From the IMG/VR virus record IMGVR_UViG_3300023176_002901: 64,000 bases of DNA, one strand, 5' to 3'. Below the pieces are notes generated by a model that worked only from the letters and a program-made list of their open reading frames with translations, did no database searches and had not been told where the DNA came from. How positions within the stretch are numbered: position 1 is the stretch's first letter; each line of letters starts with the position of its first letter. Both the position numbers and the translations under genes were made by a program. Source of the DNA: an uncultured virus (IMG/VR IMGVR_UViG_3300023176_002901). Taxonomy: Duplodnaviria; Heunggongvirae; Uroviricota; Caudoviricetes; Crassvirales. Below are positions 4,737 to 36,454 of this stretch, one piece after another.

Positions 4737-4993
4737 CGTATCTCCCATAAAAAGTCCTCTACCCAGATGGGGGTTCTCTCTCCCATCCACGCGTTGAACG
4801 TATTAAACTCAAGGAACTCGGCGGCCTCTTCTTCGCCCATATCTCTAGCCATGATGGAGATGGCCTTACTGCGTGAGTACACAACGCGGAATGACACCGG
4901 GTCGATACCAATGATGGCGCCGTCTAGTCCGTCGGCGAACAGCAGGCCCTCGTCATCATGCCCGCCGTAGAACTCAACAATCAAGTCCTTCAT
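4733..4993 (-). CDS. Hypothetical acidic protein between groEL and groES
   Basis: 86 aa, 4-nt overlaps with both neighbours. Confidence 0.75.
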   Translation of the reverse strand: MKDLIVEFYGGHDDEGLLFADGLDGAIIGIDPVSFRVVYSRSKAISIMARDMGEEEAAEFLEFNTFNAWMGERTPIWVEDFLWEIR

Positions 4994-6594
4994 TTGTCCT
5001 CGTAGGTTCTAGCCAGCGTAACGATGGCGTTAGTACTCAGTATGGTCGTTGCCACACTCACGGCATTCTTCAGGGCGTTCTTAGTGACCTTCAGTGGGTC
5101 GATGACGCCCATCTTGTACATGTCTCCGTAGACGTTGTTCTTCACATCGTAGCCGTTGTTGTCGTCATCCGACACGTCGAACATAATCTCCGTAGCGTTG
5201 AGGCCGGCATTCTCGAGTATCTGCGTCAGCGGAGCCGATAGGGCATACGCCATTATGGAATACGCGATACGCTCCTCGCTGGAGAGCTCCGGGTTATGTG
5301 ACTGTATGTGGCAGGTGTCCGCCTCGCGCCATAGCGCCAGACCACCGCCGGGGAGTATCCCCTCCTCAAGAGCGGAGCGCACAGCACACACCGCGTCATC
5401 GACGCGGTCAAAAATCTCTTTCTGCTCGACGTCAGAGTTACCACCCACATATATGATACCGATACCTCCCGTCAGGCTAGCAATACGCTGCTTTATGAAG
5501 TCCCTATCACCGCGCTTGGTGGCAGCGTCGTGCGCTTCCCACAGCTCCTTCACTCGTGCGTTGATGTCGTCGCTCTGCCCTTCGTCGCGCACGATTACCG
5601 TGCTGTCCTTGCCGACGATGACCTTAGCGGCGTGGCCGAGGTCTTTCATCGTCACCAAACTTAGGTCATCGCCCATGCTCTCGCTTATGAACCGCCCGCC
5701 TACGCTCACAGCAATGTCACTCATCAGCTCGTGCTGCTTGTATCCGAACTGAGGGGGTGTGATGGTGCACATCTTAAGGCCGTTCTTCACAACGTTCGCC
5801 GCCAGCGTATTACCAACCTGCGTGCTACAGGGGCCTATGATGAGGAGCTTCTTACGGTCCGCCACAATAGGCTTCAGGACCGACTCCACCTGCAAGACGT
5901 TACTAATCTCGTGGTCTGTCAGTAGGATGTACACGTCCTCGAGGATACACTCATCCTTCTTCTGGTTGTTGACGAACAGCTTGTTGTCATAGCCGCGGTC
6001 AATCTTAATACCGTCCGTTACGTCGCAGTATGTGGCCTCGCTCATGCTCTTCTCCACCGTCACGAGCCCATTCTCTCCTACCTTATTGTAGGCCTCCGCT
6101 ATGATACCACCGATGACGGGGTCGTTATTGGCGGAGATGGCCGCCACATCCTTAATCTTACGTGCACCCACCCTACGCGAGCGCTTCTCAAGGGAGCCCA
6201 CCACGTCGTTGGCGATGCGCTGCACCTGCCGGATGACCTCCGTGCTGTTCACCTCGGGGGTGATGAGCGACATACCGCGTACAGCAATGGCCTCCGTCAG
6301 CACAATAGCCGTGGTGGTGCCGTCACCGGCGCTTGTCGCCGTCCTATCGGCGGCCTCCTTCATCATACGAACGGCTAGGTTCTCCACGGGGTCAATAAGG
6401 TCGATGCTCTTGGCAACAGTAACACCATCCTTAGTGACAGTAATCCCGTGGGTATGGTATTGGCTTTCTATCAGCACCGTCTTACCGCGAGGACCGAGGG
6501 TGCTCTTCACCGCCTTGGCGATTGTGGCGATGCCGTTGCCTAATCTGCGACGCGCATCGTCGTCGAACGTAAGGCTCTTTGGTGTGTAGTCCAT
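4990..6594 (-). CDS. groEL: Chaperonin GroEL
   Basis: TLGPRG, TKDGVTVAK, AGDGTTTA, EEGILPGGG and GVIDP motifs; no GGM tail. Confidence 0.97.
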   Translation of the reverse strand: MDYTPKSLTFDDDARRRLGNGIATIAKAVKSTLGPRGKTVLIESQYHTHGITVTKDGVTVAKSIDLIDPVENLAVRMMKEAADRTATSAGDGTTTAIVLTEAIAVRGMSLITPEVNSTEVIRQVQRIANDVVGSLEKRSRRVGARKIKDVAAISANNDPVIGGIIAEAYNKVGENGLVTVEKSMSEATYCDVTDGIKIDRGYDNKLFVNNQKKDECILEDVYILLTDHEISNVLQVESVLKPIVADRKKLLIIGPCSTQVGNTLAANVVKNGLKMCTITPPQFGYKQHELMSDIAVSVGGRFISESMGDDLSLVTMKDLGHAAKVIVGKDSTVIVRDEGQSDDINARVKELWEAHDAATKRGDRDFIKQRIASLTGGIGIIYVGGNSDVEQKEIFDRVDDAVCAVRSALEEGILPGGGLALWREADTCHIQSHNPELSSEERIAYSIMAYALSAPLTQILENAGLNATEIMFDVSDDDNNGYDVKNNVYGDMYKMGVIDPLKVTKNALKNAVSVATTILSTNAIVTLARTYEDK

Positions 6595-6796: not shown

Positions 6797-7065
6797 TGTA
6801 GTAGTATTATACCACAAATATACCATATCGACACAACACGTGTCGCGCGAATGCGCACTTTGTGTCAATATTGGAAATCATAACTGGCTCTTATTGTGTA
6901 AGTTAACTCACTCAATGACAGAAATGTCGTTTTTTGAGGGCTTTTCCCTATCTCTCTATATATATTTTACCTGAGAGATATATTTTTTTTTAATTAACTG
7001 CTCTAAAAATCGACATAAATGGAATATAAGAGATAACTATCTAGTTTCTAATTAGATAGCTAAAA

Positions 7066-7110
7066 CAAAATCGACACAAAATCGACACAAAATCGACACA
7101 GAGTGACACA
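7066..7110. repeat. Tandem 11-bp repeat CAAAATCGACA x3 plus a degenerate copy; origin-like
   Basis: Exact copies at 7066, 7077 and 7088; related copy near 7006; next to an AT-rich tract. Confidence 0.85.
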
Positions 7111-7967: not shown

Positions 7968-8561
7968 GTTGGAAACCGAAACCTTCGTGAGTCCTTTGCA
8001 ATGTCCAACCGACATAGCATGGTCAACGAGCCATGAGGTTGGGGCGGAGATAGGCAACGAGACACTATAGTCCGCAACGCTCTTTGAAATAGCCCGAGGG
8101 GAGATAGCCACGAGGGATGACTGCTGAAGCCGTGAGGAGTACAAGTACCGAACGGAGGCGAGTGGGAGGTGTTCCCTCCTATGAGCCAAGACAATGACCA
8201 CCGCAGATGAGCGCACCATAGAGTGCGATGGTGAGCAATGGACACGAAAAGACACGAGGGAGGCAGTTGTCGCGGATGGGGAAATAGCCGAGGGATAGCG
8301 GTCAGCGATGAGAGGCAAAATTGAAAGCCTCTGCGATGTAGCCTTACATGGTAGAGATACCATAGATGCGAGAGTAGAGCATGGGACACCATGGTACTTG
8401 ATGGTAGCACGGGGTGAGCAGAGACAAGTAGGTAGGTGCCCGAGTTAGAAAAACCGACATAAAGGTCACATGATTGAGGTGGCGGTGCAGTAGGGGTGAA
8501 CCTACCGCATTGTCATTGGGGCGCATGGTGGTCATGAGGGGTTCGTTTCCCCTCCGCCCCA
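7968..8561 (+). ncRNA. Candidate large structured ncRNA (~600 nt), family unassigned
   Basis: No convincing ORF; many hairpins, some with GNRA loops; long-range helix GACAATG(8190-96)/CATTGTC(8508-14); ends in a tRNA-like element. Confidence 0.65.
8518..8561 (+). ncRNA. tRNA-like element 1 (acceptor + T arm, no anticodon arm)
   Basis: GGGGCG/CGCCCC stacked on GAGGGG-TTCGTTT-CCCCTC; linker contains TGG. Confidence 0.65.
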
Positions 8562-8578
8562 CTAAAAAACCAAGAACC

Positions 8579-8791
8579 ATGAAATACATTCCTTCCACGG
8601 ATGACCAATGGATAAAGTTGGTCACCACGAGCCGAAAGTCCTTCGGCAGAGCCTCCACGAGAGGCGCGAACTACCACGCCAAAGAGCGTGGTTTGGTGGT
8701 TAAGAAAAACCGCATTTCGGATGCTATCCGAGAGGCAATAACCGCCGACTATGAGAACACCCGTTTAGTATATGTGTGTCACGCTAAATAA
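8579..8791 (+). CDS. Early hypothetical protein (70 aa)
   Basis: ATG after an A-rich leader directly behind the tRNA-like element. Confidence 0.7.
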   Translation: MKYIPSTDDQWIKLVTTSRKSFGRASTRGANYHAKERGLVVKKNRISDAIREAITADYENTRLVYVCHAK

Positions 8792-8799
8792 TAGAAACC

Positions 8800-8928
8800 A
8801 TGACTATTGAAGCATTAATTCGTGAAGAGTTGGAACATGACTACTACGCCATGGAAACCAACCCAAGGGTCGACAAAGGCATCCTCCGCTTAATGGAGTG
8901 CGTCATTGAAGACATTCAGGTTAACTGA
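8800..8928 (+). CDS. Early micro-protein (42 aa); stop codon lies inside the hammerhead core
   Basis: Hand-read MTIEALIREELEHDYY...IQVN*; A-rich leader. Confidence 0.6.
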   Translation: MTIEALIREELEHDYYAMETNPRVDKGILRLMECVIEDIQVN

Positions 8929-8968
8929 CGAGGGTTCAGTACCCGAAACGCCGTGAGGCGTCTTAACC
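8919..8968 (+). ncRNA. Type I hammerhead ribozyme 1
   Basis: GGTTAA-CTGACGA-GGGT(TCAGT)ACCC-GAAA-CGCC(GTGA)GGCG-TC^TTAACC; full consensus core; predicted cut after C8962. Confidence 0.93.
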
Positions 8969-8983
8969 AAAAACCTTAATCTA

Positions 8984-9622
8984 ATGATTAATGACTTGAA
9001 AGAAATTCGCTTGGTACGAAACCTCCGAGCCGAATACAATCAGCGAGTGCTAAAGCAGTACCGCACCGAGAATTCTCTCATCACCACTCAAGAGACCCTC
9101 CAAGGGGATGTTTTCCTCTCGCACGAACAACGAGTTGGTGAGCGCAGAACGAGCACTCATTCTTACGGCTTTGAGGCGGACAACACTCGCAAGATGCACC
9201 TCCGCAGAACCAAAAACGCCGAGTTGATAGAGTTTAAGTTGGTGTGTGATATCATCACCATTGACTACAACTTTAGTGAAGAGCCTCGTTTCGTTACTAC
9301 GGAAATGTCCGAAGAGACGGCTCAACTCGCACCTCGTATGAAGGTCATTTACGGCACGAAGGAGGCGAAAGCCCTCCGAGATATGGCTCGTATGCAATAC
9401 ACCCTCAAAGACCTCTACAAGGGCAAAGAAACCCAAGGAATTGATGCCCTTGGTGCAATCAAGCCGGGCATCATCATTGACTGCCTCTCGGAATTGGTTG
9501 AACGAGCAGATGCTGTCTGCGAGTGGGGCACGATATGGGATGCTAAAGATGTTGCATACAAACTTGAGGAAAAGGTTGACTTCCAATTCAAGACGCCGAC
9601 CTTGAATTTCAACGCCAAATAA
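8984..9622 (+). CDS. Early hypothetical protein flanked by the two hammerheads
   Basis: 212-aa ORF, no recognisable motif. Confidence 0.8.
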   Translation: MINDLKEIRLVRNLRAEYNQRVLKQYRTENSLITTQETLQGDVFLSHEQRVGERRTSTHSYGFEADNTRKMHLRRTKNAELIEFKLVCDIITIDYNFSEEPRFVTTEMSEETAQLAPRMKVIYGTKEAKALRDMARMQYTLKDLYKGKETQGIDALGAIKPGIIIDCLSELVERADAVCEWGTIWDAKDVAYKLEEKVDFQFKTPTLNFNAK

Positions 9623-9627
9623 GCAAA

Positions 9628-9680
9628 GGTTAACTGACGAGTGCTTTAGTAGCCGAAACCGCCTCCGGGCGGTCTTAACC
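9628..9680 (+). ncRNA. Type I hammerhead ribozyme 2
   Basis: GGTTAA-CTGACGA-G[T]GCT(TTAGT)AGCC-GAAA-CCGCC(TCCG)GGCGG-TC^TTAACC; predicted cut after C9674. Confidence 0.92.
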
Positions 9681-9695
9681 AAAAACTCTAATATC

Positions 9696-10634
9696 ATGAC
9701 AAAGACCGACATCTTTGAAAAAGTAAAGCAGACCCTCATTGAGGGCATTGAAAAGGACGGCTTGAATTGGTTCAAGCCATGGAAGGATTCACGAGGCGGT
9801 GGTTTGGACGATTGGCGTCCTATCAACCGCAAGACGGGTCAACCCTACAAGGGCATGAACATTTGGTTCTTGAGTTCAGCGATGCGTGACATGGGCTATG
9901 AGCACAACGAGTGGCTCACCTATAAAAACGCACAAGAGTTGGGCGGTAGTGTCCGCAAGGGCGAGTCCTCTACCGAGGTGTTCTTTTGGAACATTGGGTA
10001 TTGGAATCCAACTACCAAAAAAGCCTACAAAAGCATGGCTGATGCCCTCGCCAAGGGTGAGAGCAAGGAGGACATCAAAGAATTCTTCTCGCTGAAGGTT
10101 TGGAATGTGTTCAACATTGCTCAATGCGATGACATTGAGCCACGCAACCCAAGCCAACCCATTGAGCCCGAGGAGGAGAATATCTTCAGCCCTATCGAGG
10201 AGGCGGAGCGCATCATTGCCGAGTGGGACACAAAGCCTCGCATACAACACGGAGGCAACTCGGCTCACTATAGCCCGAGCATGGACTATGTGCAGATGCC
10301 CGAACCAAAAAACTTCGTGGACGGGGACTCTTATTATAAGACGCTCTTCCATGAGTTGGTGCATAGCACGGGACATGAGACGCGCCTCAAGCGCAAAGGC
10401 ATCGTGGAGTTTGATAAATTCGGCTCCGACCGCTATGCGATGGAGGAGTTGGTCGCAGAGAGCGGTTCTATGATGTTGACGGGTCTTGCGGGACTCAACC
10501 CGAAGGATTCCGATGACAACTCGGTTGCCTATGTCAAGAATTGGTCGAAGCGACTCAAGCAAGAGCCAAGCAAGGCGATTGTTGGAGCGCTGACTCAATC
10601 AGCCAAGGCTGTTGAGTTAATCATGGGCAAGTAA
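9696..10634 (+). CDS. ardC: ArdC-like antirestriction / ssDNA-binding protein with zincin-like domain
   Basis: W.KPW, P.N..TG.PY.G.N, WLTYKNAQELGG.VRKGE, VFN.AQ, HELVHSTG and YAMEELVAE motifs. Confidence 0.92.
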   Translation: MTKTDIFEKVKQTLIEGIEKDGLNWFKPWKDSRGGGLDDWRPINRKTGQPYKGMNIWFLSSAMRDMGYEHNEWLTYKNAQELGGSVRKGESSTEVFFWNIGYWNPTTKKAYKSMADALAKGESKEDIKEFFSLKVWNVFNIAQCDDIEPRNPSQPIEPEEENIFSPIEEAERIIAEWDTKPRIQHGGNSAHYSPSMDYVQMPEPKNFVDGDSYYKTLFHELVHSTGHETRLKRKGIVEFDKFGSDRYAMEELVAESGSMMLTGLAGLNPKDSDDNSVAYVKNWSKRLKQEPSKAIVGALTQSAKAVELIMGK

Positions 10635-10642
10635 GCCCGAAA

Positions 10643-10686
10643 GGATGGATGGTCGCAGAGGGGGTTCGACTCCCCCTCCATTCCCA
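10643..10686 (+). ncRNA. tRNA-like element 2 (acceptor + T arm, ends in CCA)
   Basis: GGATGG/CCATTC stacked on AGGGGG-TTCGACT-CCCCCT, then CCA; linker ATGGTC. Confidence 0.65.
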
Positions 10687-10737
10687 AACTTAATAACCAA
10701 ACTCACGAGTGCGAGAGGATAACACGGCACAACTACG

Positions 10738-11948: not shown

Positions 11949-11967
11949 GTTTTTGGTTAGATAAGTG

Positions 11968-11994
11968 GGGGAGGTGTGCAGACCTCCCCTTTTT
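11968..11994 (+). terminator. Intrinsic terminator candidate
   Basis: GGGGAGGT...ACCTCCCC followed by TTTTT. Confidence 0.65.
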
Positions 11995-14474: not shown

Positions 14475-14641
14475 TCCCAAAGAGATGGAGCAGTTCATGC
14501 GAATTGCTATGGCTCGGCTAAGAGGCGAATATAGATTCGCCCCTCAGCGCCGAGCAGTTGCCGCCCGAATGTATACTAAATGGTTAAATAGAAAATGATG
14601 TTTCGTATACCGAGCATCAGTTCAAACCTTAAAACGAAGAT

Positions 14642-24877: not shown

Positions 24878-24950
24878 GCGCCTTTAGCTCAGTGGTTAGA
24901 GCAGTGGACTCATAATCCATTGGTCGTAGGTTCAAATCCTTCAAGGCGCA
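24878..24950 (+). tRNA. tRNA with CAT anticodon, probably tRNA-Ile2 (lysidine) rather than Met
   Basis: Cloverleaf, loop CTCATAA, C4:G69 and C5:G68 pairs, discriminator A; one T-stem mismatch; CCA not encoded. Confidence 0.85.
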
Positions 24951-24954
24951 CACC

Positions 24955-25027
24955 GCCCCCATAGCTTAATGGATAGAGCAACGCACTTCTAATGCGTAGG
25001 TTGCTGGTTCGACTCCAGCTGGGGGTA
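24955..25027 (+). tRNA. tRNA-Arg(TCT)
   Basis: Cloverleaf with ACGCA-CTTCTAA-TGCGT anticodon arm; CCA not encoded. Confidence 0.92.
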
Positions 25028-25063
25028 CAAAGTGTAAAATAAAAACACCACAAAGTGTAAAGT

Positions 25064-28000
25064 CTACTCTCCAAGCATAGCCTTTCGGTACGCCTCAATC
25101 TCCTTATCGCTTTTCTTCTTATCTCCTCCTTCTATAACATAGTCAGAGTAGTTGAAGAGCCTGAGCAACGCCTCGCCCGGGTCCTTTGAATCGGGGATGG
25201 CTTCGATATTCTTAACCATCTTGTGGATGTTAGAAGCAGGGATGCCCGTCAGTTCTGTGATGTGATTAATCATTCTCCACATGTACTTATCCTTCTTCAC
25301 TGGGTCAGTAGCCTTGGTGAATGATTTGATATCCTTAAATACCAATCCAATCTGCTCGAATACAGGGAGCGTAGTAAATTCTCCAGCCCACGGAGCGCCA
25401 CTAACGAGGTCCTTGACTGCCGTAAGAATATCTCCAACAATAAACAAGGCGTTGAGGTTGCCAAGCAATGCCGCACGGCCAAGTGCCTGCTCATCCTCCT
25501 CATCCCAATCGGAAAGTAATCCGGGAAGGCCGAGGGCAACCCATTGGAACACCATAGGAACAAGGATGTGATATGTCACTACTCGTCTTGCGATATCACC
25601 ATATCCGTCCTGTGTTGGTAGACCCTTCATCTTTCTACTTAGGCTCATGAAGGCGCTCATCTCTCTGCGAAGCAACGCCTTTGGTGAAGATAAGAACACA
25701 TTCAAGAATCGGTATGCAGGGCCGCCAGTTTGGAACCAGTCCTTGTTGGTAATGCCACTATCTTGCTGCGTTCTGAGTGCCTGTTTAGTCGCCTTTTCGC
25801 TCGCATACTTCTGAGCCCCAGCCTCGTCACCGGGATTCTTCTCCAAGTACTGCTGCTTGTAGTACAAGTAGTTAGCAAGACCACCCATGATACCACCCTT
25901 GTCACCCTGCTTAACCAAGTACATGAGTGAGTTCATTAGGTTTCTCGTCTGCTCTTTTGTGACTGTAATATCCTTGCCACCTACCTTTTTATTTACAAGG
26001 ATTGGAGACTCATTGAGAGAACCCTCATAGCTGTATCCTTCTAGGATATCTCCAATGTTTGAGTTCTCATATCTCTCCTGAAACAGGGGCGAGTTAGCAT
26101 ACCACTCCTTCCATAGTTTGCGAGCCTGAGGAAGAGCGAGGGCAGTGTACTTACTCCAGTTTGTGTAGCCGATATAGTCAGCAAAGGCAAATGCAGAAGT
26201 GAGCTGCTTCAGGAATACCGTTGGGTTGATGGCAAGCTTAGACTTGATATACATACCCATCATAGCATTGGCAAGCTGAGATTCGTTTTGAGAGATTCCC
26301 TTTCTTGCAACCTTTTGCATCATGTCCTTCAGAGCGTCGTATGTATTCTTACCACCGAGCTCTATGATTGCTGCCTTTACGTTCGCATTGTCAAGAACCT
26401 TGCTCAGGTCTCTCATGGCCTCAGCATAGGCACGGAAGTATTCCATGTCTTTGAGGTATGAGTTGAGCACCGAGTTGCCATCGACACTTTGAATGGGACG
26501 AGAGTTCTTTACCCTCGCCTTGGTAGACTGGCCACCAACGCTGGTCTGGTATTCAGAAGAGCCGGCCAGTAAGTCGAACTGAAGGTCGCCCTCTTCGCCC
26601 TCTCTAAAAATTCTGCCTGCATAGAACTGATTCCATGGCATGTTGGTTCTATAGATGGCCTTGTATACCTCGTTGTATTTTTCATACAGGCTGGGATACA
26701 GCTCGTTAACCTGCCAGTCTGCCCACTCTTTTGTCTTGGCATCAAGTCTGTCGGTAATCTGCTGCATGATTCTAGCATACTGGTTCTTACCAAACTTCTT
26801 CTCAAAGGATGCCACATTAGCGGGGTCCTTGTATTGATTATACAAGTAGTAAGCTTGGTTATTACTGAGAACAACCTCAAGCTTTTCAAGCTGTCTAATT
26901 ATCTGCGCCTTACGTTTGTTGGTGGCAGAGTCGTATTCCTTCTTCAGCTCATTAGCCTTCTCCTCGTTAAGCCATATGACATTCTTGTCATTGATGAGGT
27001 CTTTACTCACAACAGGCACAGCATTACGCTGCATCTCAAGCTTGTAGTTATCGCCCCATATCTCCTTGGCTTTGTTGCTGATGATATCAAACACTTGTTT
27101 CTTGCCAGAGACAAAAGAAACTCGAGCCTTGAAGAGCCTGTCATCAAAGATTTCCATGAGCTTGTTGCCGCCCATGGCCTCAGACAGTCCGCTTGATATT
27201 CTTTGAAGCAATAGAGCGAGGTCCATTTGCTTGGTGAAGAACTCATCCACGCTGTTCTTTATCTTACCAACAAAGGACTTAATACCTCCATCAAAGGTCT
27301 TCCTTCTCTGCTCCTTGTTCTTAAGTTCTATAAGCTTCTCCTTGTTAGCCTCTTCACCCTCCTCGGAAAGGTCGAGCTCCTCACCCGTGATGCCATTGTA
27401 GGCGTCAGATATAAGATGCTCATAGTAAGCACGTTGAGCATCAATCTCTCCGCGCATCTGCGAGCGACCCGTAGATATAAGAGTACGGAGGTTGTCTCTC
27501 ACGGCAGCAAGGGCGTCTACCTTATGCGGGTTGTTATCCTCCATAAGCATCGCCTCGTTGTACATAAGAGCAATAGAGAGCGCGTTCATCTCGTCGCTCT
27601 CTTCCTGCGTCAGCGCGGTCTTTACAGACAGCTTATTGAATCTCTTCTCCTGCTTCTGCATTAGGTCCTCAATGTTCTGAGCAGACATACCCTCATCTAC
27701 GAGCATTGGGCTCTTCTTATTGGTAAGGGAACCAAGGATGTTCTGCAAGGACACGCTTACTCTGCCCACTCTACGACCCGATACCATTCTAGTGGTGGGG
27801 GTCTTCAGGAGTTTGTCAATAGCAGCACTTAGGTCACGCACATAGAACTCGTTGACGAATCCAGTGACGCGCTCCATCACTGCGGGCAGTGAGTCTGGAG
27901 TGGCGTCTGTGATAGCCTTCATCAGCTTGTTGACATCAGCCTTATTGAATACGGTCTTAGGCAAGTTCTTGCGGATGAACATGCGCATAGCGCGCTTAGC

Positions 28001-31000
28001 TTTTTCAAGTTCAGCCGCGCCCTTCTTCATGTTGGAAAGCATCGCACGCAACGCCTTGAAGTCCGCTTGGAACTTCTTGTTGGCGGCGGGGATGTTCAAT
28101 GCCTTGTCCAATCCAATCTGCATCTCCGCCTGAATGGTTGGGCTCTGCGCTTTAAAGAAATCAGAGTTAACCAACAGCTCCTGAGCCTTGGCTCTTACAT
28201 CCGCAGCGTTGTGTAGCAACACGCCCAATCTCTTGGCATTAGCATAGCGCTTAATCTTCTTGGTCAACTCGTTGAAGAACGCCTGACCCTGAGCAACACC
28301 GCCCTCCGCATTGGCGAAGCCATCGGGGAGCATAGTGCCCATCACATCGATAGGCACAGCGAGTGCTGACTTAATCTCGGTGGCGCTGTATCCCTGCTCC
28401 TTCAAGAAAGCAGCTATAACTCTATCGGTGTAGCCCCTCTCGCGCACATCATTGATGAACTCGTAGATGCTCTGCGTTCCGGCGCCATAGCCTTGGCGGC
28501 GTAGTGAGTTGGCGCTTCCGCCCCCGCCAATAACTCTAAGGAATGGGTTGAAGAACTTCCCATCCAGCGTCATGTGGTAACCGGAGACCTCACCGGTGCG
28601 CTCATCACGTCTAGGCTTTGTGCCGAGCCTGTCATCAAGCTTGCGCACAGCGATTCTAAACTGAGCGGGGTCGGTAGTAGCGGGAACAAATCCCTTATGG
28701 TTCATATTAAAGCGGTGACCTAGCTCCTGAGCCTGACTCTGAGGCTTAGCGCTCCAGTTCTGGTATGCAGTGGCGTCGCCCCTCTTCTGACGGATAGCGG
28801 GAGGTGGTTCAACGCCAGCCTCTGCCCTTAGGTATTCACCGTGGAGTCTCTGTATATCATTAAAGAGCTCTTGACTTATAAATCCGTCTTTAAGCTCTTT
28901 GCGTGCTAAAGAATATCTTTCTGGGTCAACGCTCTTAGCCAAGAGATTGCCAGAGCTTTCCAGATACACACTGCTAATAAATTCACCATGGTCATCCCCG
29001 GCTATTTCCTCAATACTTCCGAGCGATTTCACTCTACTTGAAGTTGAAAAAAACGAACCGCCAACCGTAACTAGATTTGATATGACAATGGGAGTCGAGC
29101 CGGGACCCTCTTCTGAGCCTTCCCAAATAAGTAGGCCTGAAGCAACAGTCTTGAGCTTTCCGGTATCCTTGAAATTTTCTGACGGCTTAAACTGTAACCC
29201 GCCACCCACATATTCAAGGTCGCCAAAAGAATCTACTTCTACATTAATGCTAACTTCTCCGGAGACGCTTCTTAAAGACCCAAGATTTATAGCGTGACCC
29301 GCGTAATCGTCTGACGCCGAAATGGTCAAATAATTTACAGTTTCTAAAGCCCCCAAGTCAAACCCTGAATCACCTAAGCGGACTCTAAGAGAACCGACAA
29401 TTTCTTTTAAGTGTGGACCAAGGGTTCTTAGTGTTTTATTGTCAGTTATTTGTAACGACCCTTCAAGTTTTTTTAATTTACCTAGGTCCCTCAGTCTTGA
29501 TTTCTCTCCTATCACAATTGGGCTTGACCTAACAATTTCCTCAAGTTCTCCAAAGCTTTCTAAAGTATCCGGAACCCCGTATTCAAAACGTCCAAGACGC
29601 TTCATCTTGCCAAGCGTTATTATTGAAGGCGGTAAATTTAAATCCCCTTCAACAACCTTCAACTCCCCAAGAGACATTAATTTTTGTGCATATGACAAAT
29701 CAAGATTGTCACCTACACGCTCTAATTTACCAAGAGACTCAAGCTGCCCTGCGCTATACAAGTTAACATTATCTTGGACAGTGGTTAAATTGCCAAGGCT
29801 TCTTATGTCGTTTACTATATGCACACCTTGGTCGACACTTGTTACTCCTATATGAAAATCTAAGGAGTTTTCTTGTATGAATAAATCACCGCCAACTAAC
29901 TCAATATTACCGGTGCTGTTTTTATCATATATGGTTGCGTCCCCTTCAACAGTTTTTAAATTAGCGGGGATGAGCTGTGACTGTTGGTTGTAATGTCCCG
30001 CGATGACCCTCAAGCTTTTAGCACTATTGGAGATAGCGTTTGAAACCATTCGGACGGCCCCCTCTTCGCCATACGCCTCAACGAGGCTTGCAAAAATGTC
30101 AAACGATGTAAAGCTCCCTCCCGAATAGAGCACTACATAGTCTGTAGCATGCGACACATAATCGGATGGGTCCTCGTTATTTATCGCTTCACCGAATAAC
30201 TCAAACACCCTAGCTTTTCCTTTTATCTCAAGCCTGCTGCCAATTTGCTTCCCATCTCTCATGGCCTCTATCGCCGCAGCTTTTAAGCCCATACGAATTA
30301 AATTGTCGCCATAAAAGTTTCCAATAAGAACCTCGGTCTCCGGGGTTAATTCTTCCATGCCTCGGGCAACTTTTCCTTTTATCTCAGGAGCAACATCGTT
30401 AGCATCAATCTTTAAATTAAAGTCCTCATTGAGTCGCTCGACGAAACCATTTCCCCCATACTGCATGAAGCTGTATCGGTTTGCTTCAGCAGTAAGGCTA
30501 GATACCGTTCTAAAGTCCTGCAAGGTTAAAGGGCGCTTCGATATCTCCTCCCTAAACATCCTTATCTTTTCGTTGAAGCGCTGCCCCTCTGCCCATTTCT
30601 CACCGCCCGGAACGGCGCCACTTTCCAAGAACTGCTCAGCTACAGGGCGCATCTTTGGCTCCATCTGTTGTCCTTCAAGGATACCTCGCACCTCTTCAAT
30701 GCTTCCTCTTCTTGTTCTTACGGCAATACGGGCTTTTGGCACGCCGCCTTTATCCGTTGTTACAAAGACATAGAAATCGCCGCCCCTAAGCTGCCCTTCG
30801 GCTCCGGTCTTTGTGCACCATGGCGTATCCTGAACAAGCTGACTTAAGGCGTCTGCGTTGTCATTAATATCTTGCTCACTAACACCGTCGCCACCGGGGA
30901 ACTTAAGCCACGTGCCCTCAGCGGTATCGTACATCTTAAATGCCTTAACAACATTGGGCGCGTTGGCCATCATCGTCTCAACGTATTCTTTTAATACTGC

Positions 31001-34000
31001 GTCTGATGATATGGTCTGCTCGCCAACCATTCTACTAATGGTGCCCTCGTCGTATGGCGTGTAGTTACGAAGAGTTTGGCGATTTCTCTTTTTGTAGCTC
31101 CCTGTTCTAGCGTCGTAGTTATGTGTGACGACAGCATCGAAAAGCATCAAGCGAATGGCGGGGGGTATACCGATTTCATGTTGTAGAAAGGCTGCCCATT
31201 TCTTTATAGTGTCATCTTGAGTGACTTGATATTCGTTTAGCACACGCATTCTGTGATAATCACTTTCTGCCTTCTCTTCAATTTCCGCAACCGTTTTCCT
31301 ACTGAGACCCATCCGGTCTGCTTCTTTTGCCTGACCAAGAATATCTTTGGTGATGTTATCGCCATCGTATATTTTAAGAAAGTCAATTATATAACTATCA
31401 GTTTGGTTAACCTGTGCGCCTATAGCAAACGCTATAGATTCTAGAAATCTATATACAGCCTGTGCTGGAGAGCTGCTTTTTGGGAATAGGCGGTTGGCCA
31501 ATAGGATGACAGCATTAACATCTTTGAGATTTGTTTTTTTAACGTCTGCCCTATTAACATCGGCGGATGTATCTGAATCAAATAATAGGCTATCTAAAAC
31601 CCTTTCAACAATGCCTTCGGCTCTACTCGCTTGAAGGATTTCTTCGCTGGTGGGCTCTACTCCATCTTTTTTATAGCCCATTGCCGTGAAAAAGCGACCG
31701 CTATCTTCAAGAACTGGAAGTATCTCCCCCAGCATCTTAATGGCTTCCTGCTGGTACTTCTCTTGGATACCAGCCTTCTGATACTTAATGCCTTCAGTCG
31801 GAGTGATGGTAATCAATCCCTTCTTCTGACGCATAGCGTTCTTAGTTTCAAGGGTCTGAGGTGAGCGCTTCATGCTTTGCGCACCATCATAAGCTACTCG
31901 AGTAACAGAGAATCCAAACTTCTCATAGAACTTAGTCAAGTCCTTGGCCATCTTTGCGAGCTTGGCTTCAGAATACTCTTTACGAGTTACCGGGTCTCCT
32001 TGATATCGCTTTGTTGGATACGCATCAAGTTTAATAGTCAGGCCAAGTTTATCGGCGGCTGCCGTAATACGATTCATTAACCTAGTGCCAGCTCCAGTTC
32101 CAGCAAGCCTTGGGTCAAATAATTCAATGCCATCTATGTATATAACATTACCCTCTTTAGGGCTGATACGTATGTTCATTTCAAGCTCCGGATTCTCAAC
32201 CGAAGTGTCCATAGTCATAAATCCACCCCGCATAATAATGCTTGGGAATATGTGGAAGTCTGGGTCGTTTGCCATTTCGGCAAACAAGTTGGCTACATTG
32301 TTGTAAGGCTGATAGAATTCTCTACGCCAATTGAAATCCTCATCCATGAAGTACACCCTCACTTCGTCCGCGGTAAGAGCATCATCGGTACTTGTTGGAT
32401 ATGGTTTTCTTCCCTTTCTGTTCAGGCTTTCACGAGCCTCCTCGTTGGTCATCGCCTTCTTCTGACGAAGTGCTGGCTTCTTGACCTTGATGTTCTCGAT
32501 AGCCATCTGCTGCTCTCCCGTAAGCTGAGCTGCTGGGAGGGCATCTTCTAGAGTAATGACCGTGGGCTCCTCAACTATATCGGTAGGAATCTCAGCGACA
32601 TACTGAGCGCCCATGGCGGAGCGTGCAGCCTGAGGCTTCGCTCTTTCTCCAATCTCTATCTGAGGACCGGTTACTGGCTTGGCCTTGGGATATACTTTGC
32701 GCACATCCACGGCCTTATCGAACACCATTATGGGTGTCCCCTCAATAACAAACGGATAAGAGGGGTGGGTATCCATTCCCTCCTTGCGGGTATCGATTAC
32801 CTTGCTGTCCTTATTGAACTGAATAGCAGATATAATATCTCCATATTGTACCTTCTCAAGAGATGGGTCGTTGACATAGTCAAGAACGCCCGTCTTCATC
32901 TTTGCCGTTGGCATCAATGGCGGTATCCCAAAGCGCTCATAAGAGGTGGCAGAGAAGAACGACTTAGTGAATGCACCACGAGTGTCATATGAGATTACTC
33001 CCTTGCCTTCAATGGGCATAAGGTCTCTCAGGTCTTCCAAGGTTTCTATTTGTCCCTTGTGTCCTTTCTTCTCTAGCTGTTCGGCAATAGTAACGCCGGG
33101 AGTTCTTGATGCTGTTCTAAGTTTGGCGTTGACATAGTCAATCAATTCCTGTGGAGACGCGCCCTTCATGACGGCGTTCTGAATTTCCGCCATTAGATAT
33201 TCATAAAAGGAAAGGCTACCAGCAATACCATCAGAAGCCTGAGACATCACCAATCCTACACCATCGCTCTCTTTTACTTTCTTTAGAATCTTGTTGGCTG
33301 CCGTCTCGCTAGTAAACGCCCAGCCCATACCGCTACCATAGGGGTATAGGTATCCACCCTTGAAGAAGTATCTCGTTCCAGATGGGCTCTCAATTTCACC
33401 ATAGGTTGCTTGGTCGGCTGCAAATACAAACGCATTAGCGCCCGACAAGTCGTTGATGCTACCGCGCTTGATAGCCTCTATGTCGATGCCACCTCGGTTA
33501 AGCTGCTGCTTGCGTGTGGCGTTTATGTTTATAGAATCTGAGCCCTTCTCATTAATGTTCTCAGCAACAGTGCCAGATGCGACTGTTGAGCCGGGCTCCG
33601 CAGCGCTATCAAGAACAACGAGGTCAGCCGCTACAATCGCCTTGCCTCTCGCAACCTTGCGGGCGAGGACGTCAAGCATAGCGGTTACGCTCTCGTCGGT
33701 TTTACCAAACTCAGAAGGAAGAGACACATTGAATGCTCTCGCCAATCGCTTAATAAACTCTACAATCTGTCCCTTAACCGTCGACGTTGCGTTGACGTAC
33801 TCTCTAGACAGCGCACCCATGAGCTGAGCGAGGCGCTCCTCATTCTGGAAGTTCTCGTCGTAGTTCTGTGCGAAGGCATCAATCTCTTTTGCTAGGGCAC
33901 TGTCATCCGCAAGAGTCTTGCGGACATTCTCCATCATGGTCTTGGCCACAGCCTGAGCCTTGGAGTCCGTTCTAACCTTGTTCAAGAATATAGCATGGAA

Positions 34001-36454
34001 CACCTCGTGCGCTACCGTGCTTGCGTCCGCTGTCGCAAGGTTGATATGGATTACGCCATCGTTGTAGGCGCCCTCATCTGTCGCTGCTGTTCCGGTGTTC
34101 TTAGAGAACTCCTCGCCTGTGGCGTGAAGTATAATCTTCACATCGGGCAACAGCTTTTGAATGGCCTTAGCTCCACGAACGGCGAGCTTCTCAATGCGAG
34201 TCTGCTCCTTAGTGAGTGGCTGTGCGCCCGTCTCATTAACGACCAGATTGTCGGAGAGCTTTCTACCCCCCTCGAATACGGCAGCAACCTCTTCATTTGT
34301 GGCGGCAGCTACTGGTGCTTGACCAAGCGCTTCAGCCTTGAGGTCTTCGAGTTGTTGTTGCTCCTCCTCAGTGAGGGTTACTTCTTCTTCGACACGCGCT
34401 TCGGGAGCGACTTCAGGTTCTGCTTGGGGTGCTCCTTCCGCCACTTCTTCGCCAACTCTGGCTTCTGGCTGAACAGGAACTTCACTTGTTGCTTGCTCTT
34501 GAATGGCATCTTCTTGTGATTTTGTATATAGTTCTTTTATCTTCTCATCAATCTTAGCGACCTTTTCTTTTGCTATAGACTGAACCGCATCGTCCTTACC
34601 GGCGACCTTTTCTAAAGTTAACTGCTTTTCTCTTACGAGATTAAACATCTCTGCCTGAGCTTCCTCCGGCATATCCTCGGGGATTTTACCAAGAACGTCA
34701 ATGAACTCATCAACATTGGCAATCACCCTATCACCTTCGGCTCGTTCCATCTTACCAGCAGCAACCTGTTGGTCGATGTACTCAGATACTTTTTCTCTTT
34801 TAATTGCGCCAACAAATTCCTTGGCCTGCTTGAAGTCTTCTGATGTAACACCCTCAGGTCTAGAGAATGCACCGACTGTTCCAGCTATAATGCCACCGCC
34901 AATAGCTTCTTGAGCTCCGGCATATAGCACGTCCATCACAATTTCTTGTGCGGTCTTTGGCTTGAAAATATTCTTGCCTTGAGAGTCGGTTACATATTGA
35001 TTAATCAAATCATTTGACAACTCCTGAAGAGCACCCGTCTCAAATTCAGAGAGGCCACCCTTTGTAATCTTACTGGCGTATCCCCTTAATCCCTTGGCTT
35101 CTTGGCGAACAACTCTTTCAAAAGCCTCGGCTCCCACGTCTTCGCCCATTCCAGCAAGTCGGGTAAGAACCTTACCCGCCAAAATTCTTTTCACCATGGG
35201 CATCCCATTCAGGGTGTTTCTCAAACCAACTCTTTCAAGTATTCCCTCAATGCCAGCGGTGGCGAGTAAGTATGTTTGTCTTTGAGCCTCAGTCATTTGA
35301 AGGTCTGGATTCGCAGCAAGCTCATTTGCTAATTGCTCTTCCGCCGCCTGATAAGACATGTCCATAAAAGATAAGCCCATCGTAGAAGCAGATGTTGCCA
35401 TCGCGGGCAACGAGGTCATTAGTCCACGAACGGCACCCGAAAAGAATCTATCCTGAAGCTCTCTCTCTTTTCTTTTATCAATGGCGTATCCAGCCTTTTT
35501 GATAATTTCCTCTCGGCCCGCTTCCTTTATATATGGTAGAACTTCATTCTCAATACCCTTGTCTACCGTGGCAAAGTATTCCATGTATGCCGCATTGGCC
35601 GCAAGGGCATCTGAGTAGCCATCATCAATGGCCTTCTTATACATAACATATAAGTCGGGGTGCTTATCTTTTTTGTCCTCAATAAAGCGAGCAATCACCT
35701 GACCGTTCAGTGAGTTCTCTTCTCGGATATTGTTAACCCAGTTTCCAAATCCCTCAATGAGACCGTTCCACTTGTCGCCAACCCACTCTCCAGCAGTAAC
35801 TTCTACTGGCTCAAGTAATTCTGATTTATCCTCTTTGGGTTTTACTAAACCTTTTACTACTTGGTTAAATGCAACAAATGGGGCGGCAAGCGTTGGAACC
35901 TCTGGAGCCTTTATCTCCTCGGGTTGCGGCATCTCAACGGCGCCCTCTTCAATGCGACCCTCCATAACTGCCTGAGCCTCTGGAGATATCCCTTCTTCGC
36001 CAGCAATAGCGCCGGTCTCAAGGTCCATAGTAATGCCCTCCTCGGTAACAACCTCGGTTGGTCTAGTCTCATATGGCACAGGAATGGGCTGCTCTTGTGG
36101 AGCAACACCGCCCGCCTCTTGGATAGCCTGCTGCGTCTGTGGCGCTAAGCGTGGAGACGGGGGGAGTGTAAGGTCACGCCCGGGTAAAGAAGCCAAAGTA
36201 GGCGTCTCCATAGGAGAAGCCAACTGCTCTTCTTGAAAAGAAACCTCTGAAGGTTCTTCTTTTTTTTTTAATGGAGCATACTTTACATCGAACTCTTCAC
36301 GCCCTTTGGTATATAAGCCGTCTCTAGTTACAACACCAAATACTTTATCTCTATATTGTGGGTCTTCGTACTTAACTATAAACTCTTCATATGAGTTGGT
36401 ATAGTAACCCTTAGATACGAGGGTGTCGTATAACTTTTTGAGCTCGTCATTCAT
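25064..36454 (-). CDS. Giant modular internal virion / polyvalent protein (zincin HExxH, GNAT-like, PcfJ-like, LRR-like solenoid)
   Basis: 3796 aa; AHEVFH near 34000; GTGAGTRLM acetyl-CoA loop near 32090; PWCT...RIAVR...EVRG near 30800; L..LG.L..V.G.L repeats at 28950-29980; last of three internal-protein genes after the tail genes. Confidence 0.8.
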   Translation of the reverse strand: MNDELKKLYDTLVSKGYYTNSYEEFIVKYEDPQYRDKVFGVVTRDGLYTKGREEFDVKYAPLKKKEEPSEVSFQEEQLASPMETPTLASLPGRDLTLPPSPRLAPQTQQAIQEAGGVAPQEQPIPVPYETRPTEVVTEEGITMDLETGAIAGEEGISPEAQAVMEGRIEEGAVEMPQPEEIKAPEVPTLAAPFVAFNQVVKGLVKPKEDKSELLEPVEVTAGEWVGDKWNGLIEGFGNWVNNIREENSLNGQVIARFIEDKKDKHPDLYVMYKKAIDDGYSDALAANAAYMEYFATVDKGIENEVLPYIKEAGREEIIKKAGYAIDKRKERELQDRFFSGAVRGLMTSLPAMATSASTMGLSFMDMSYQAAEEQLANELAANPDLQMTEAQRQTYLLATAGIEGILERVGLRNTLNGMPMVKRILAGKVLTRLAGMGEDVGAEAFERVVRQEAKGLRGYASKITKGGLSEFETGALQELSNDLINQYVTDSQGKNIFKPKTAQEIVMDVLYAGAQEAIGGGIIAGTVGAFSRPEGVTSEDFKQAKEFVGAIKREKVSEYIDQQVAAGKMERAEGDRVIANVDEFIDVLGKIPEDMPEEAQAEMFNLVREKQLTLEKVAGKDDAVQSIAKEKVAKIDEKIKELYTKSQEDAIQEQATSEVPVQPEARVGEEVAEGAPQAEPEVAPEARVEEEVTLTEEEQQQLEDLKAEALGQAPVAAATNEEVAAVFEGGRKLSDNLVVNETGAQPLTKEQTRIEKLAVRGAKAIQKLLPDVKIILHATGEEFSKNTGTAATDEGAYNDGVIHINLATADASTVAHEVFHAIFLNKVRTDSKAQAVAKTMMENVRKTLADDSALAKEIDAFAQNYDENFQNEERLAQLMGALSREYVNATSTVKGQIVEFIKRLARAFNVSLPSEFGKTDESVTAMLDVLARKVARGKAIVAADLVVLDSAAEPGSTVASGTVAENINEKGSDSININATRKQQLNRGGIDIEAIKRGSINDLSGANAFVFAADQATYGEIESPSGTRYFFKGGYLYPYGSGMGWAFTSETAANKILKKVKESDGVGLVMSQASDGIAGSLSFYEYLMAEIQNAVMKGASPQELIDYVNAKLRTASRTPGVTIAEQLEKKGHKGQIETLEDLRDLMPIEGKGVISYDTRGAFTKSFFSATSYERFGIPPLMPTAKMKTGVLDYVNDPSLEKVQYGDIISAIQFNKDSKVIDTRKEGMDTHPSYPFVIEGTPIMVFDKAVDVRKVYPKAKPVTGPQIEIGERAKPQAARSAMGAQYVAEIPTDIVEEPTVITLEDALPAAQLTGEQQMAIENIKVKKPALRQKKAMTNEEARESLNRKGRKPYPTSTDDALTADEVRVYFMDEDFNWRREFYQPYNNVANLFAEMANDPDFHIFPSIIMRGGFMTMDTSVENPELEMNIRISPKEGNVIYIDGIELFDPRLAGTGAGTRLMNRITAAADKLGLTIKLDAYPTKRYQGDPVTRKEYSEAKLAKMAKDLTKFYEKFGFSVTRVAYDGAQSMKRSPQTLETKNAMRQKKGLITITPTEGIKYQKAGIQEKYQQEAIKMLGEILPVLEDSGRFFTAMGYKKDGVEPTSEEILQASRAEGIVERVLDSLLFDSDTSADVNRADVKKTNLKDVNAVILLANRLFPKSSSPAQAVYRFLESIAFAIGAQVNQTDSYIIDFLKIYDGDNITKDILGQAKEADRMGLSRKTVAEIEEKAESDYHRMRVLNEYQVTQDDTIKKWAAFLQHEIGIPPAIRLMLFDAVVTHNYDARTGSYKKRNRQTLRNYTPYDEGTISRMVGEQTISSDAVLKEYVETMMANAPNVVKAFKMYDTAEGTWLKFPGGDGVSEQDINDNADALSQLVQDTPWCTKTGAEGQLRGGDFYVFVTTDKGGVPKARIAVRTRRGSIEEVRGILEGQQMEPKMRPVAEQFLESGAVPGGEKWAEGQRFNEKIRMFREEISKRPLTLQDFRTVSSLTAEANRYSFMQYGGNGFVERLNEDFNLKIDANDVAPEIKGKVARGMEELTPETEVLIGNFYGDNLIRMGLKAAAIEAMRDGKQIGSRLEIKGKARVFELFGEAINNEDPSDYVSHATDYVVLYSGGSFTSFDIFASLVEAYGEEGAVRMVSNAISNSAKSLRVIAGHYNQQSQLIPANLKTVEGDATIYDKNSTGNIELVGGDLFIQENSLDFHIGVTSVDQGVHIVNDIRSLGNLTTVQDNVNLYSAGQLESLGKLERVGDNLDLSYAQKLMSLGELKVVEGDLNLPPSIITLGKMKRLGRFEYGVPDTLESFGELEEIVRSSPIVIGEKSRLRDLGKLKKLEGSLQITDNKTLRTLGPHLKEIVGSLRVRLGDSGFDLGALETVNYLTISASDDYAGHAINLGSLRSVSGEVSINVEVDSFGDLEYVGGGLQFKPSENFKDTGKLKTVASGLLIWEGSEEGPGSTPIVISNLVTVGGSFFSTSSRVKSLGSIEEIAGDDHGEFISSVYLESSGNLLAKSVDPERYSLARKELKDGFISQELFNDIQRLHGEYLRAEAGVEPPPAIRQKRGDATAYQNWSAKPQSQAQELGHRFNMNHKGFVPATTDPAQFRIAVRKLDDRLGTKPRRDERTGEVSGYHMTLDGKFFNPFLRVIGGGGSANSLRRQGYGAGTQSIYEFINDVRERGYTDRVIAAFLKEQGYSATEIKSALAVPIDVMGTMLPDGFANAEGGVAQGQAFFNELTKKIKRYANAKRLGVLLHNAADVRAKAQELLVNSDFFKAQSPTIQAEMQIGLDKALNIPAANKKFQADFKALRAMLSNMKKGAAELEKAKRAMRMFIRKNLPKTVFNKADVNKLMKAITDATPDSLPAVMERVTGFVNEFYVRDLSAAIDKLLKTPTTRMVSGRRVGRVSVSLQNILGSLTNKKSPMLVDEGMSAQNIEDLMQKQEKRFNKLSVKTALTQEESDEMNALSIALMYNEAMLMEDNNPHKVDALAAVRDNLRTLISTGRSQMRGEIDAQRAYYEHLISDAYNGITGEELDLSEEGEEANKEKLIELKNKEQRRKTFDGGIKSFVGKIKNSVDEFFTKQMDLALLLQRISSGLSEAMGGNKLMEIFDDRLFKARVSFVSGKKQVFDIISNKAKEIWGDNYKLEMQRNAVPVVSKDLINDKNVIWLNEEKANELKKEYDSATNKRKAQIIRQLEKLEVVLSNNQAYYLYNQYKDPANVASFEKKFGKNQYARIMQQITDRLDAKTKEWADWQVNELYPSLYEKYNEVYKAIYRTNMPWNQFYAGRIFREGEEGDLQFDLLAGSSEYQTSVGGQSTKARVKNSRPIQSVDGNSVLNSYLKDMEYFRAYAEAMRDLSKVLDNANVKAAIIELGGKNTYDALKDMMQKVARKGISQNESQLANAMMGMYIKSKLAINPTVFLKQLTSAFAFADYIGYTNWSKYTALALPQARKLWKEWYANSPLFQERYENSNIGDILEGYSYEGSLNESPILVNKKVGGKDITVTKEQTRNLMNSLMYLVKQGDKGGIMGGLANYLYYKQQYLEKNPGDEAGAQKYASEKATKQALRTQQDSGITNKDWFQTGGPAYRFLNVFLSSPKALLRREMSAFMSLSRKMKGLPTQDGYGDIARRVVTYHILVPMVFQWVALGLPGLLSDWDEEDEQALGRAALLGNLNALFIVGDILTAVKDLVSGAPWAGEFTTLPVFEQIGLVFKDIKSFTKATDPVKKDKYMWRMINHITELTGIPASNIHKMVKNIEAIPDSKDPGEALLRLFNYSDYVIEGGDKKKSDKEIEAYRKAMLGE

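Follow-up and report, generated by a model that had tools for sequence, protein, structure and literature searches.

Paired type I hammerhead motifs bracket a single open reading frame in a tailed phage genome

The 64,000-nucleotide (nt) stretch of uncultured virus DNA IMGVR_UViG_3300023176_002901, called the window here at its full length, carries two complete type I hammerhead motifs on its + strand, at 8919–8968 (HHR-1) and 9628–9680 (HHR-2). The copies lie 709 nt apart and bracket one open reading frame (ORF) in a + strand gene block. They are probably self-cleaving ribozymes that split a polycistronic early + strand transcript of a Flavobacteriia-type tailed phage. Direct support comes from the motif itself, its covariation, the geometry of its family and its gene context, from which we infer cleavage in vivo and an effect on expression.

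Both copies present the same order of elements: GGUUAA, CUGACGA, stem-loop II, GAAA, stem-loop III, UC and UUAACC. Such an order, stem I being open, identifies a type I hammerhead. In HHR-1, stem I (GGUUAA at 8919–8924, UUAACC at 8963–8968) encloses the core CUGACGA (8925–8931), stem-loop II (8932–8944; GGGU/ACCC with loop UCAGU), GAAA (8945–8948), stem-loop III (8949–8960; CGCC/GGCG with loop GUGA, plus an A8948–U8961 pair) and U16.1 C17 (8961–8962), with the predicted cut between 8962 and 8963. The corresponding parts of HHR-2 are stem I (GGUUAA at 9628–9633, UUAACC at 9675–9680), the core CUGACGA (9634–9640), stem-loop II (9641–9654; G(U)GCU/AGCC with loop UUAGU and a bulged U at 9642), GAAA (9655–9658), stem-loop III (9659–9672; CCGCC/GGCGG with loop UCCG) and U16.1 C17 (9673–9674), with the predicted cut between 9674 and 9675. 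The catalytic core is intact in both, comprising C3–A9, G12–A14, the A15.1–U16.1 pair, C17 and the G10.1–C11.1 pair that closes stem II (G8932–C8944 in HHR-1, G9641–C9654 in HHR-2); position H17, which must not be G, is C at both predicted cut sites (8962 and 9674). The full core and the identical stem I described in the first-pass annotation are thus confirmed in both copies. A composite pattern, CTGANGA..GAAA..TCTTAACC with bounded gaps, matched twice in the window and not once in 100 shuffles, and the minimum-energy fold of HHR-1 is the hammerhead fold (−15.8 kcal/mol). The same annotation pointed to compensatory changes between the twins; these exist but are thin, amounting to a single G–C to C–G exchange in stem II and an additional C–G pair in stem III, and the strong covariation comes from the family instead.

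That family was sampled among viral contigs by an exact-word scan with GGTTAACTGACGAG, which found at least 125 loci (sample 1), and a script filter retained 96 unique complete elements among the matches listed, the window's two included. Stem II had four consecutive pairs in 84/96, with 30 distinct 5′ strands, and stem III had 4–13 pairs in 93/96, its 5′ strand taking 70 distinct sequences. UNANU predominated in loop II, and loop III was often UUCG, UACG, GUGA or GAAA; H17 was C in 75/96 and A in 21/96. A covariance model (R1) built from 15 equal-length relatives in other viral contigs, and containing no window sequence, scored HHR-1 at 61.9 bits (E 4e-14) and HHR-2 at 65.9 bits (E 4e-15). 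With filters off and both strands of the 64 kb searched, the next best match reached 10.5 bits, so the window holds exactly two copies.

Run on 100 of the at least 125 sample 1 loci (loci that overlapped or duplicated others were omitted, as were the record of the window itself and L109–L125), R1 gave 95 matches, 91 of them distinct. Across these 91 relatives 99.5% of 1437 pair cells were paired, compared with 74.3% in shuffles, in an alignment that was fitted to R1 and hence leans towards the structure of the model. Cells changed on both sides numbered 345, compared with 93 in shuffles, and 0/500 shuffles reached the observed value; when the 3′ partners were slid by 1–3 columns, only 25–45% of cells stayed paired. 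Both-sided changes were found in 13/16 pairs, and the G10.1–C11.1 pair was G–C in 88/91 rows. Judged by sequence, HHR-1 and HHR-2 are genuine type I hammerhead motifs whose core and three helices are under selection and for which cleavage is predicted.

A second sample, independent of stem I, was seeded on the core and stem II (CTGANGAGNNNTNANTNNNCGAAAC) and found at least 133 loci; among the matches listed, 139 were unique and 133 of these were full type I hammerheads. Here stem I took dozens of covarying sequences, GGUUAA/UUAACC being the commonest (18/133). An invariant stem I had been entertained and was rejected as an artefact of seeding on GGTTAACTGACGAG. What is near-constant is the form of the helix: 6 bp in length, with an outer G–C pair in 127–128 of 133 and an unpaired A on either side (5′, position −1, in 132/133; 3′, position +1, in 133/133). 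The UNANU loop was imposed by the sample 2 seed and counts as evidence in sample 1 alone. Fast cleavage at physiological Mg2+ requires a tertiary contact between stems I and II; no internal loop or pseudoknot was found, and the conserved flanking A residues and loop II are candidates for such a contact. The twins belong to a large phage-borne class with an A-flanked 6-bp stem I, a 4-bp stem II and a variable stem III. In genome and metagenome-assembled genome contigs from many bacterial phyla and some archaea, 41/125 core matches proved to be complete hammerheads of type I, each with both flanking A residues; the other 84/125 failed the filter, some chance matches being expected for a 16-base pattern in a collection of this kind. 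Some members carry an extra U between A9 and G10.1 (CUGAUGA-U-GGG...), namely L306:1931–1981, L299:1421–1471 and a − strand copy at 2906 in L052.

In the family the ribozyme typically fits exactly into the gap between one stop codon and the start region that follows. Upstream of HHR-1, a 42-aa ORF (8800–8928, + strand), which had no Pfam or PHROG match, ends in a TGA (8926–8928) that is the UGA of the HHR-1 CUGA core. Downstream, an A-rich 21-nt leader (8963–8983, + strand) lies between the predicted cut and the ATG at 8984, and another 21-nt leader (9675–9695, + strand) between the HHR-2 cut and the ATG at 9696, which opens an ArdC-like gene; both leaders start UUAACCAAAAAC and share their first 12 nt. 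In sample 1 the upstream stop lay inside or touching the ribozyme in 66/96 elements, the stop of the longest upstream frame being the TAA in GGUUAA in 36/96, a TAG whose last base is the first G of stem I in 18/96 and the TGA in CUGA in 12/96. Measured to the first ATG that begins a frame of 30 or more codons, the cut-to-ATG distance in this sample had a median of 22 nt (interquartile range 20–24) and fell between 18 and 24 nt in 76/95. The first-pass annotation had proposed selection on spacing, and the constraint on this distance across the family bears it out; the coincidence of exactly 21 nt in both copies, on which the proposal had leaned, is nothing special, two random members matching in leader length with a probability of about 0.11 by a hand calculation from the sample 1 leader-length counts. 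The sequence AAAAAC directly after UUAACC, common to the twins and present in 1/94 other family members, suggests common ancestry, gene conversion or an optimum particular to this phage.

The window encodes a tailed phage, with terminase, portal, structural and tail proteins, a Sak-like annealing protein, an exonuclease, a primase/helicase and a GroEL-like chaperonin. Relatives of its primase occur in phages of Flavobacterium, Nonlabens, Polaribacter, Cellulophaga, Maribacter and Bacteroides, the best being MW202828.1 (69.9% identity). The ORF between the twins encodes 212 aa (8984–9622, + strand, from the ORF list) and would lie on a predicted excised RNA of 712 nt (8963–9674). It matched no Pfam or PHROG family and has only four relatives, 73–84% identical and without name or domain. 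Directly 3′ of HHR-2 stands the ArdC-like anti-restriction gene (9696–10634, + strand; Pfam ArdcN 1.7e-26, MPTase-PolyVal 2.8e-32), whose product falls in PHROG 7245, anti-restriction protein (3.4e-71). No strong + strand terminator-like site precedes position 11967 in the block that holds both copies; a consensus scan placed the first strong one, a hairpin with a T-run, at 11967–11990 (+ strand), and the transcript carrying both ribozymes probably ends there. The other + strand site listed between 6400 and 11967 is a weak one of 5 pairs at 10313–10326, inside the ArdC-like gene.

On such a transcript each ribozyme would fold during transcription and cut after C17. As stem I is the open helix, the ribozyme body would stay on the upstream RNA, which would thus retain nearly the whole ribozyme at its 3′ end, together with its own stop codon, two hairpins and a 2′,3′-cyclic phosphate, and the downstream RNA would begin with a 5′-OH and the short leader before the ATG. 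The message would in this way be split into single-gene mRNAs, one for the 212-aa ORF and one for the ArdC-like gene, the translation and decay of each mRNA would be uncoupled from neighbouring genes, and the ribozymes could serve the mosaic gene cassettes of phages as a naturally occurring ‘insulator’.

The elements of this scheme have precedents. Passages of Perreault 2011 (PMC3088659) report multiple hammerheads flanking single genes in prophages, describe cleavage by clustered phage hammerheads in vitro and in E. coli, note hammerheads flanking or preceding ardA, and propose that long phage transcripts are processed into single-gene mRNAs; passages of the Weinberg 2019 review (PMC6765202) add that such processing might alter stability or translation efficiency, its purpose being undefined. 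The mechanism of processing, stability and translation offered in the first-pass annotation therefore restates hypotheses found in these passages, and the present analysis bears it out in part. Its two same-strand ribozymes around one ORF in a + strand phage block place the window with the clusters of Perreault 2011, as far as those passages describe them: in both, several ribozymes pointing the same way enclose individual genes of a polycistronic phage message, and in both an anti-restriction gene lies directly downstream of one ribozyme, although ardA there and the ArdC-like gene here belong to different protein families. The hammerheads whose testing those passages describe came from Clostridium scindens, Azorhizobium and Agrobacterium, whereas the host range of the window is Flavobacteriia-like and its leaders have no Shine-Dalgarno (SD) sequence. 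A search of the literature for Flavobacteriia phage hammerheads or for this subclass found nothing specific, and Dataset S1 and the figures of Perreault 2011 may contain the subclass. The twins share with Rfam family RF00163 (Hammerhead_1) the 11-nt core, the G10.1–C11.1 and A15.1–U16.1 pairs, the GUC triplet and the open stem I; they differ in a 6-bp stem I without internal loop and flanked by A, and their class has typically a 4-bp stem II with a UNANU loop. Their likeness to RiboJ is by analogy, the twins being natural and RiboJ engineered. RiboJ, ascribed to Lou et al. in 2012, is said to be a hammerhead insulator placed just upstream of a translation start, where it cuts away upstream RNA so that expression is freed from its context; it reportedly keeps the ribozyme body on the downstream RNA, whereas the type I topology of the twins leaves just 6 nt of stem I there.

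Several results weigh against processing by the twins. Firstly, standard models recognise them poorly. An Rfam scan of the whole 64-kb window at gathering scores listed two tRNAs and neither hammerhead, and a scan of 8800–9800 at E≤10 gave no hammerhead. In searches of 86 nt, RF00163 (clan CL00010) aligned with both copies over its full length (model positions 1–45 of 45), at 17.5 bits for HHR-1 and 14.3 bits for HHR-2; both miss the gathering score of 34, which is a curation cut-off and no biological criterion. The best Rfam match to HHR-2 was RF03152, the RAGATH-1 hammerhead, at 20.7 bits (gathering score 56.3), a partial alignment (positions 22–77 of 77) that takes in the core with stems I and III and lacks the 5′ part of the model. 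With scores below threshold, routine annotation would miss the twins, and Rfam thresholds overlook this abundant phage subclass.

Secondly, folding is equivocal. Thermodynamic z-scores are weak (−1.4 for HHR-1, −2.4 for HHR-2), and stem II of HHR-2 contains the bulged U. The hammerhead fold of HHR-2 has an energy of −15.9 kcal/mol, and a rival minimum-energy fold at −19.0 is 3.1 kcal/mol more stable; in it GGUUA/CUGA pairs with UUAG/UAGCC of the loop II region (9628–9654), a helix that HHR-1 is unable to form. On these models the competing fold may make HHR-2 cleavage slower or conditional.

Thirdly, cleavage is not predicted to open the start region. Its accessibility, expressed as a mean unpaired probability for the part of the start region that lies past stem I, was computed in 90 family members and stood at 0.644 with 150 nt of upstream RNA, 0.699 with the ribozyme attached and no upstream RNA, and 0.697 after cleavage, the last equal to the ribozyme-attached form. 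In the window, cleavage changed it from 0.46 to 0.48 for HHR-1 and from 0.81 to 0.69 for HHR-2, with no gain predicted. The proposal of the first-pass annotation that cleavage frees the leader is accordingly not supported in silico for the window copies and the 90 relatives, in which folding gives no gain beyond that of removing upstream sequence; an earlier apparent gain was discarded, as it was due to the loss of stem I and upstream sequence and not to cleavage itself. In these models the ribozyme body leaves the start unoccluded and cleavage would merely insulate the start from upstream coding sequence, so that the accessibility data lend the insulator effect no support in the window and weak support in general. 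SD-independent initiation, the other half of that proposal, does suit the context of this phage, in which an SD-like tetramer lies upstream of 5/43 long ORFs and A is enriched at −14 to −10, in agreement with Baez 2019 (PMC6847099), where initiation in Bacteroidetes is described as independent of SD sites and tuned by the structure of the mRNA. In sample 2, however, a strong SD and start codon followed the cut, at a median of 27 nt, in 42/133 (2/20 among members of the GGUUAA type), and SD-independent initiation is therefore no reason for the existence of the class.

Fourthly, there are RNA data and the genomic distribution to consider. Six metatranscriptome runs each contain some portion of the stretch, if only a small one, with 99% of sampled words found in a salt-marsh run (X1) and 42% in another (X2). 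Contigs of X1, at a depth of about 5, bridge both predicted cuts (8400–9553 and 9547–10700), and no joints were reported. These contigs represent uncut template in the RNA library, be it uncleaved RNA or DNA carry-over; runs X1–X4 are stored as contigs, which are blind to ends, strand and level, and the uncovered parts in X2–X4 are meaningless. The Bacteroidota-type promoter pattern TTTG..TAnnTTTG matched three times, at chance level, and nowhere near the locus. The 19 kb of MW202828.1 that were searched gave no R1 match. At 67 other viral ArdC loci, a hammerhead stood directly upstream in two (L306, L293) and directly downstream in three (L292, L311, L315), by a regular expression that undercounts, having missed HHR-2 owing to its bulge. 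With a hammerhead upstream at only 2/67 loci, the ribozymes are dispensable and tied to no particular gene, and a linkage of hammerheads to ArdC was rejected. A blastn search of 8400–10700 against GenBank phages gave no match, and the nearest virus record begins at window position 14574 and is uninformative for the ribozyme region.

The same facts can be arranged differently. One alternative, unlikely on balance and yet deserving of some weight, is that the ribozymes serve the upstream RNA, whose new 3′ end, with stems II and III and a cyclic phosphate, would block 3′ exonucleases, any effect on the leader being incidental. The type I topology, which keeps the entire folded body on the 5′ product, the stop codon in or just before the ribozyme in most members, which leaves the upstream mRNA translatable, and the failure of cleavage to increase predicted accessibility downstream all fit such a role. 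It leaves unexplained both the tight window of 18–24 nt from cut to ATG and the A-rich sequence directly after stem I, and it is compatible with processing into single-gene mRNAs and so no exclusive alternative to it.

The mobility of the flanking genes bears on a second alternative, in which the motifs mark cassette boundaries, the arms A-GGUUAA-CUGANGAG and GUC-UUAACC-AA acting as recombination homologies by which early genes are exchanged among phages and cleavage being neutral or selfish. The closest ArdC relative, L306 (64% identity), has kept a hammerhead in this position, with a stem II the same as that of HHR-1, a near-identical stem III, the one extra U after A9 and a compensatory change in stem I (GGUUGC/GUAACC). 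The gene upstream of this single hammerhead is unrelated to the 212-aa ORF of the window, where an ORFan and a second hammerhead have been added; we infer from these sequences that a ‘gene plus second ribozyme’ was inserted in the window's lineage, in the manner of a cassette. The distribution of the elements is sporadic, in that they are absent from the searched part of MW202828.1 and lie beside unrelated small ORFans, and the phage encodes the Sak-like annealing protein and the exonuclease. ORFs 3′ of family members are small (median 75 aa for 69 closed ORFs), and a PHROG search of 59 distinct downstream ORFs (from 60 references of 84) gave nine matches, all to families of unknown function. 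Homology between arms would, however, account neither for the conservation of all catalytic nucleotides nor for the covariation of stems II and III, which imply selection on an RNA fold and not just on DNA homology, and the arms are just 12–15 nt long; recombination between neutral arms is accordingly an improbable explanation. In L306, some 260 nt of GC-rich, hairpin-rich non-coding DNA (1030–1292) lie 5′ of the ORF that precedes the hammerhead, and a search of this structure at E≤5 gave no Rfam match.

Ribozymes of one contig tend to share stem I, which would suit cassettes and has implications of its own. Among 23 distinct R1 matches that lacked the seed 14-mer and lay beside a seeded element, 19 had GGUUAA/UUAACC, compared with 18/133 (about 14%) in sample 2, a concordance somewhat inflated by the preference of R1 for a GGUUAA stem. 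In 12 non-duplicate sample 2 contigs with at least two copies, 10/26 within-contig pairs had an identical 5′ strand of stem I (a hand count), where about 4% would be expected from pooled frequencies. Stems II and III differ in those pairs, and a shared stem I beside divergent stems II and III indicates homogenisation of, or selection on, stem I within a phage. Arrays of 4–5 hammerheads at spacings of 170–700 nt, each bracketing one small ORF, were seen in L039, L045, L052, L080, L127 and other loci, stem I being usually common to the members of a contig and stems II and III different.

There is a slim chance that this matching is functional, with a common 5′-OH tag on every processed mRNA able to re-pair with any retained ribozyme body; if true, it could lead to circularisation of the 712-nt RNA, to re-joining of cassettes at the level of RNA or to the tag being recognised by a factor from phage or host. 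The cleavage reaction of hammerheads can run in reverse, and a related and very improbable scenario has the excised 712-nt RNA re-joined, its 5′-OH UUAACC pairing with its own 3′ GGUUAA and the hammerhead or a host RtcB-type ligase closing it into a circle or joining it to other RNA. Stem I concordance within contigs and the identity of stem I and of the first 12 leader nt in the twins, with AAAAAC so rare elsewhere, would be in keeping with this. The 6-bp AU-rich stem I favours product release, the RNA-library contigs hold no joint (contigs being a poor test), and passages of Perreault 2011 (PMC3088659) state that a search for spliced or circular RNAs produced by clustered hammerheads of phages detected none. 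That the motifs are non-catalytic look-alikes (attenuators or protein-binding hairpins) or chance matches is scarcely credible: the Rfam scores are under threshold and activity of the twins is a prediction, but every core position is intact, the family covaries in all three helices, the composite pattern arose in none of the shuffles, and R1 recognises the copies at E values of about 1e-14.

Other features of the window lie outside the ribozyme locus. Directly after the ArdC-like gene, at 10643–10686 (+ strand), there is a tRNA-like mini-helix with a 7-bp acceptor-like stem (GGAUGGA/UCCAUUC), a perfect T-arm (GGGGG-UUCGACU-CCCCC) and then CCA; ARAGORN called no tRNA there, and the element may be the relic of a tRNA-fragment attachment site or a tRNA mimic. 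Adjacent genes for tRNA-Met (CAT) and tRNA-Arg (TCT) occupy 24878–25028 (+ strand), at the junction of the + strand replication and − strand structural blocks, and the − strand block opens with a single ORF of 3796 aa (25064–36454) before the structural genes. Three exact tandem copies of AAAATCGACAC were seen by eye at 7067–7099, with a fourth near-copy some 50 nt upstream (about 7006–7016); lying in the divergent intergenic region between − and + blocks, they could be operator or iteron sites. The GroEL-like chaperonin is encoded at 4990–6594 (− strand; Pfam Cpn60_TCP1 2e-64, PHROG 5725), and the annotation of MW202828.1 includes groEL and a 10-kDa co-chaperonin.

The locus is therefore a further example of a known phage arrangement and not a new type of element. 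The passages of the 2019 review (PMC6765202) leave the role of phage and bacterial hammerheads undecided, and on this point the window provides a clean natural test case: one gene is enclosed by two ribozymes, an anti-restriction gene follows, and the host group makes no use of SD sites. The regularities of the family, with its stop codon in stem I, its ATG 18–24 nt past the cut, its A flanks and its genome-shared stem I, narrow the hypotheses on such a role to those within reach of a simple reporter experiment.

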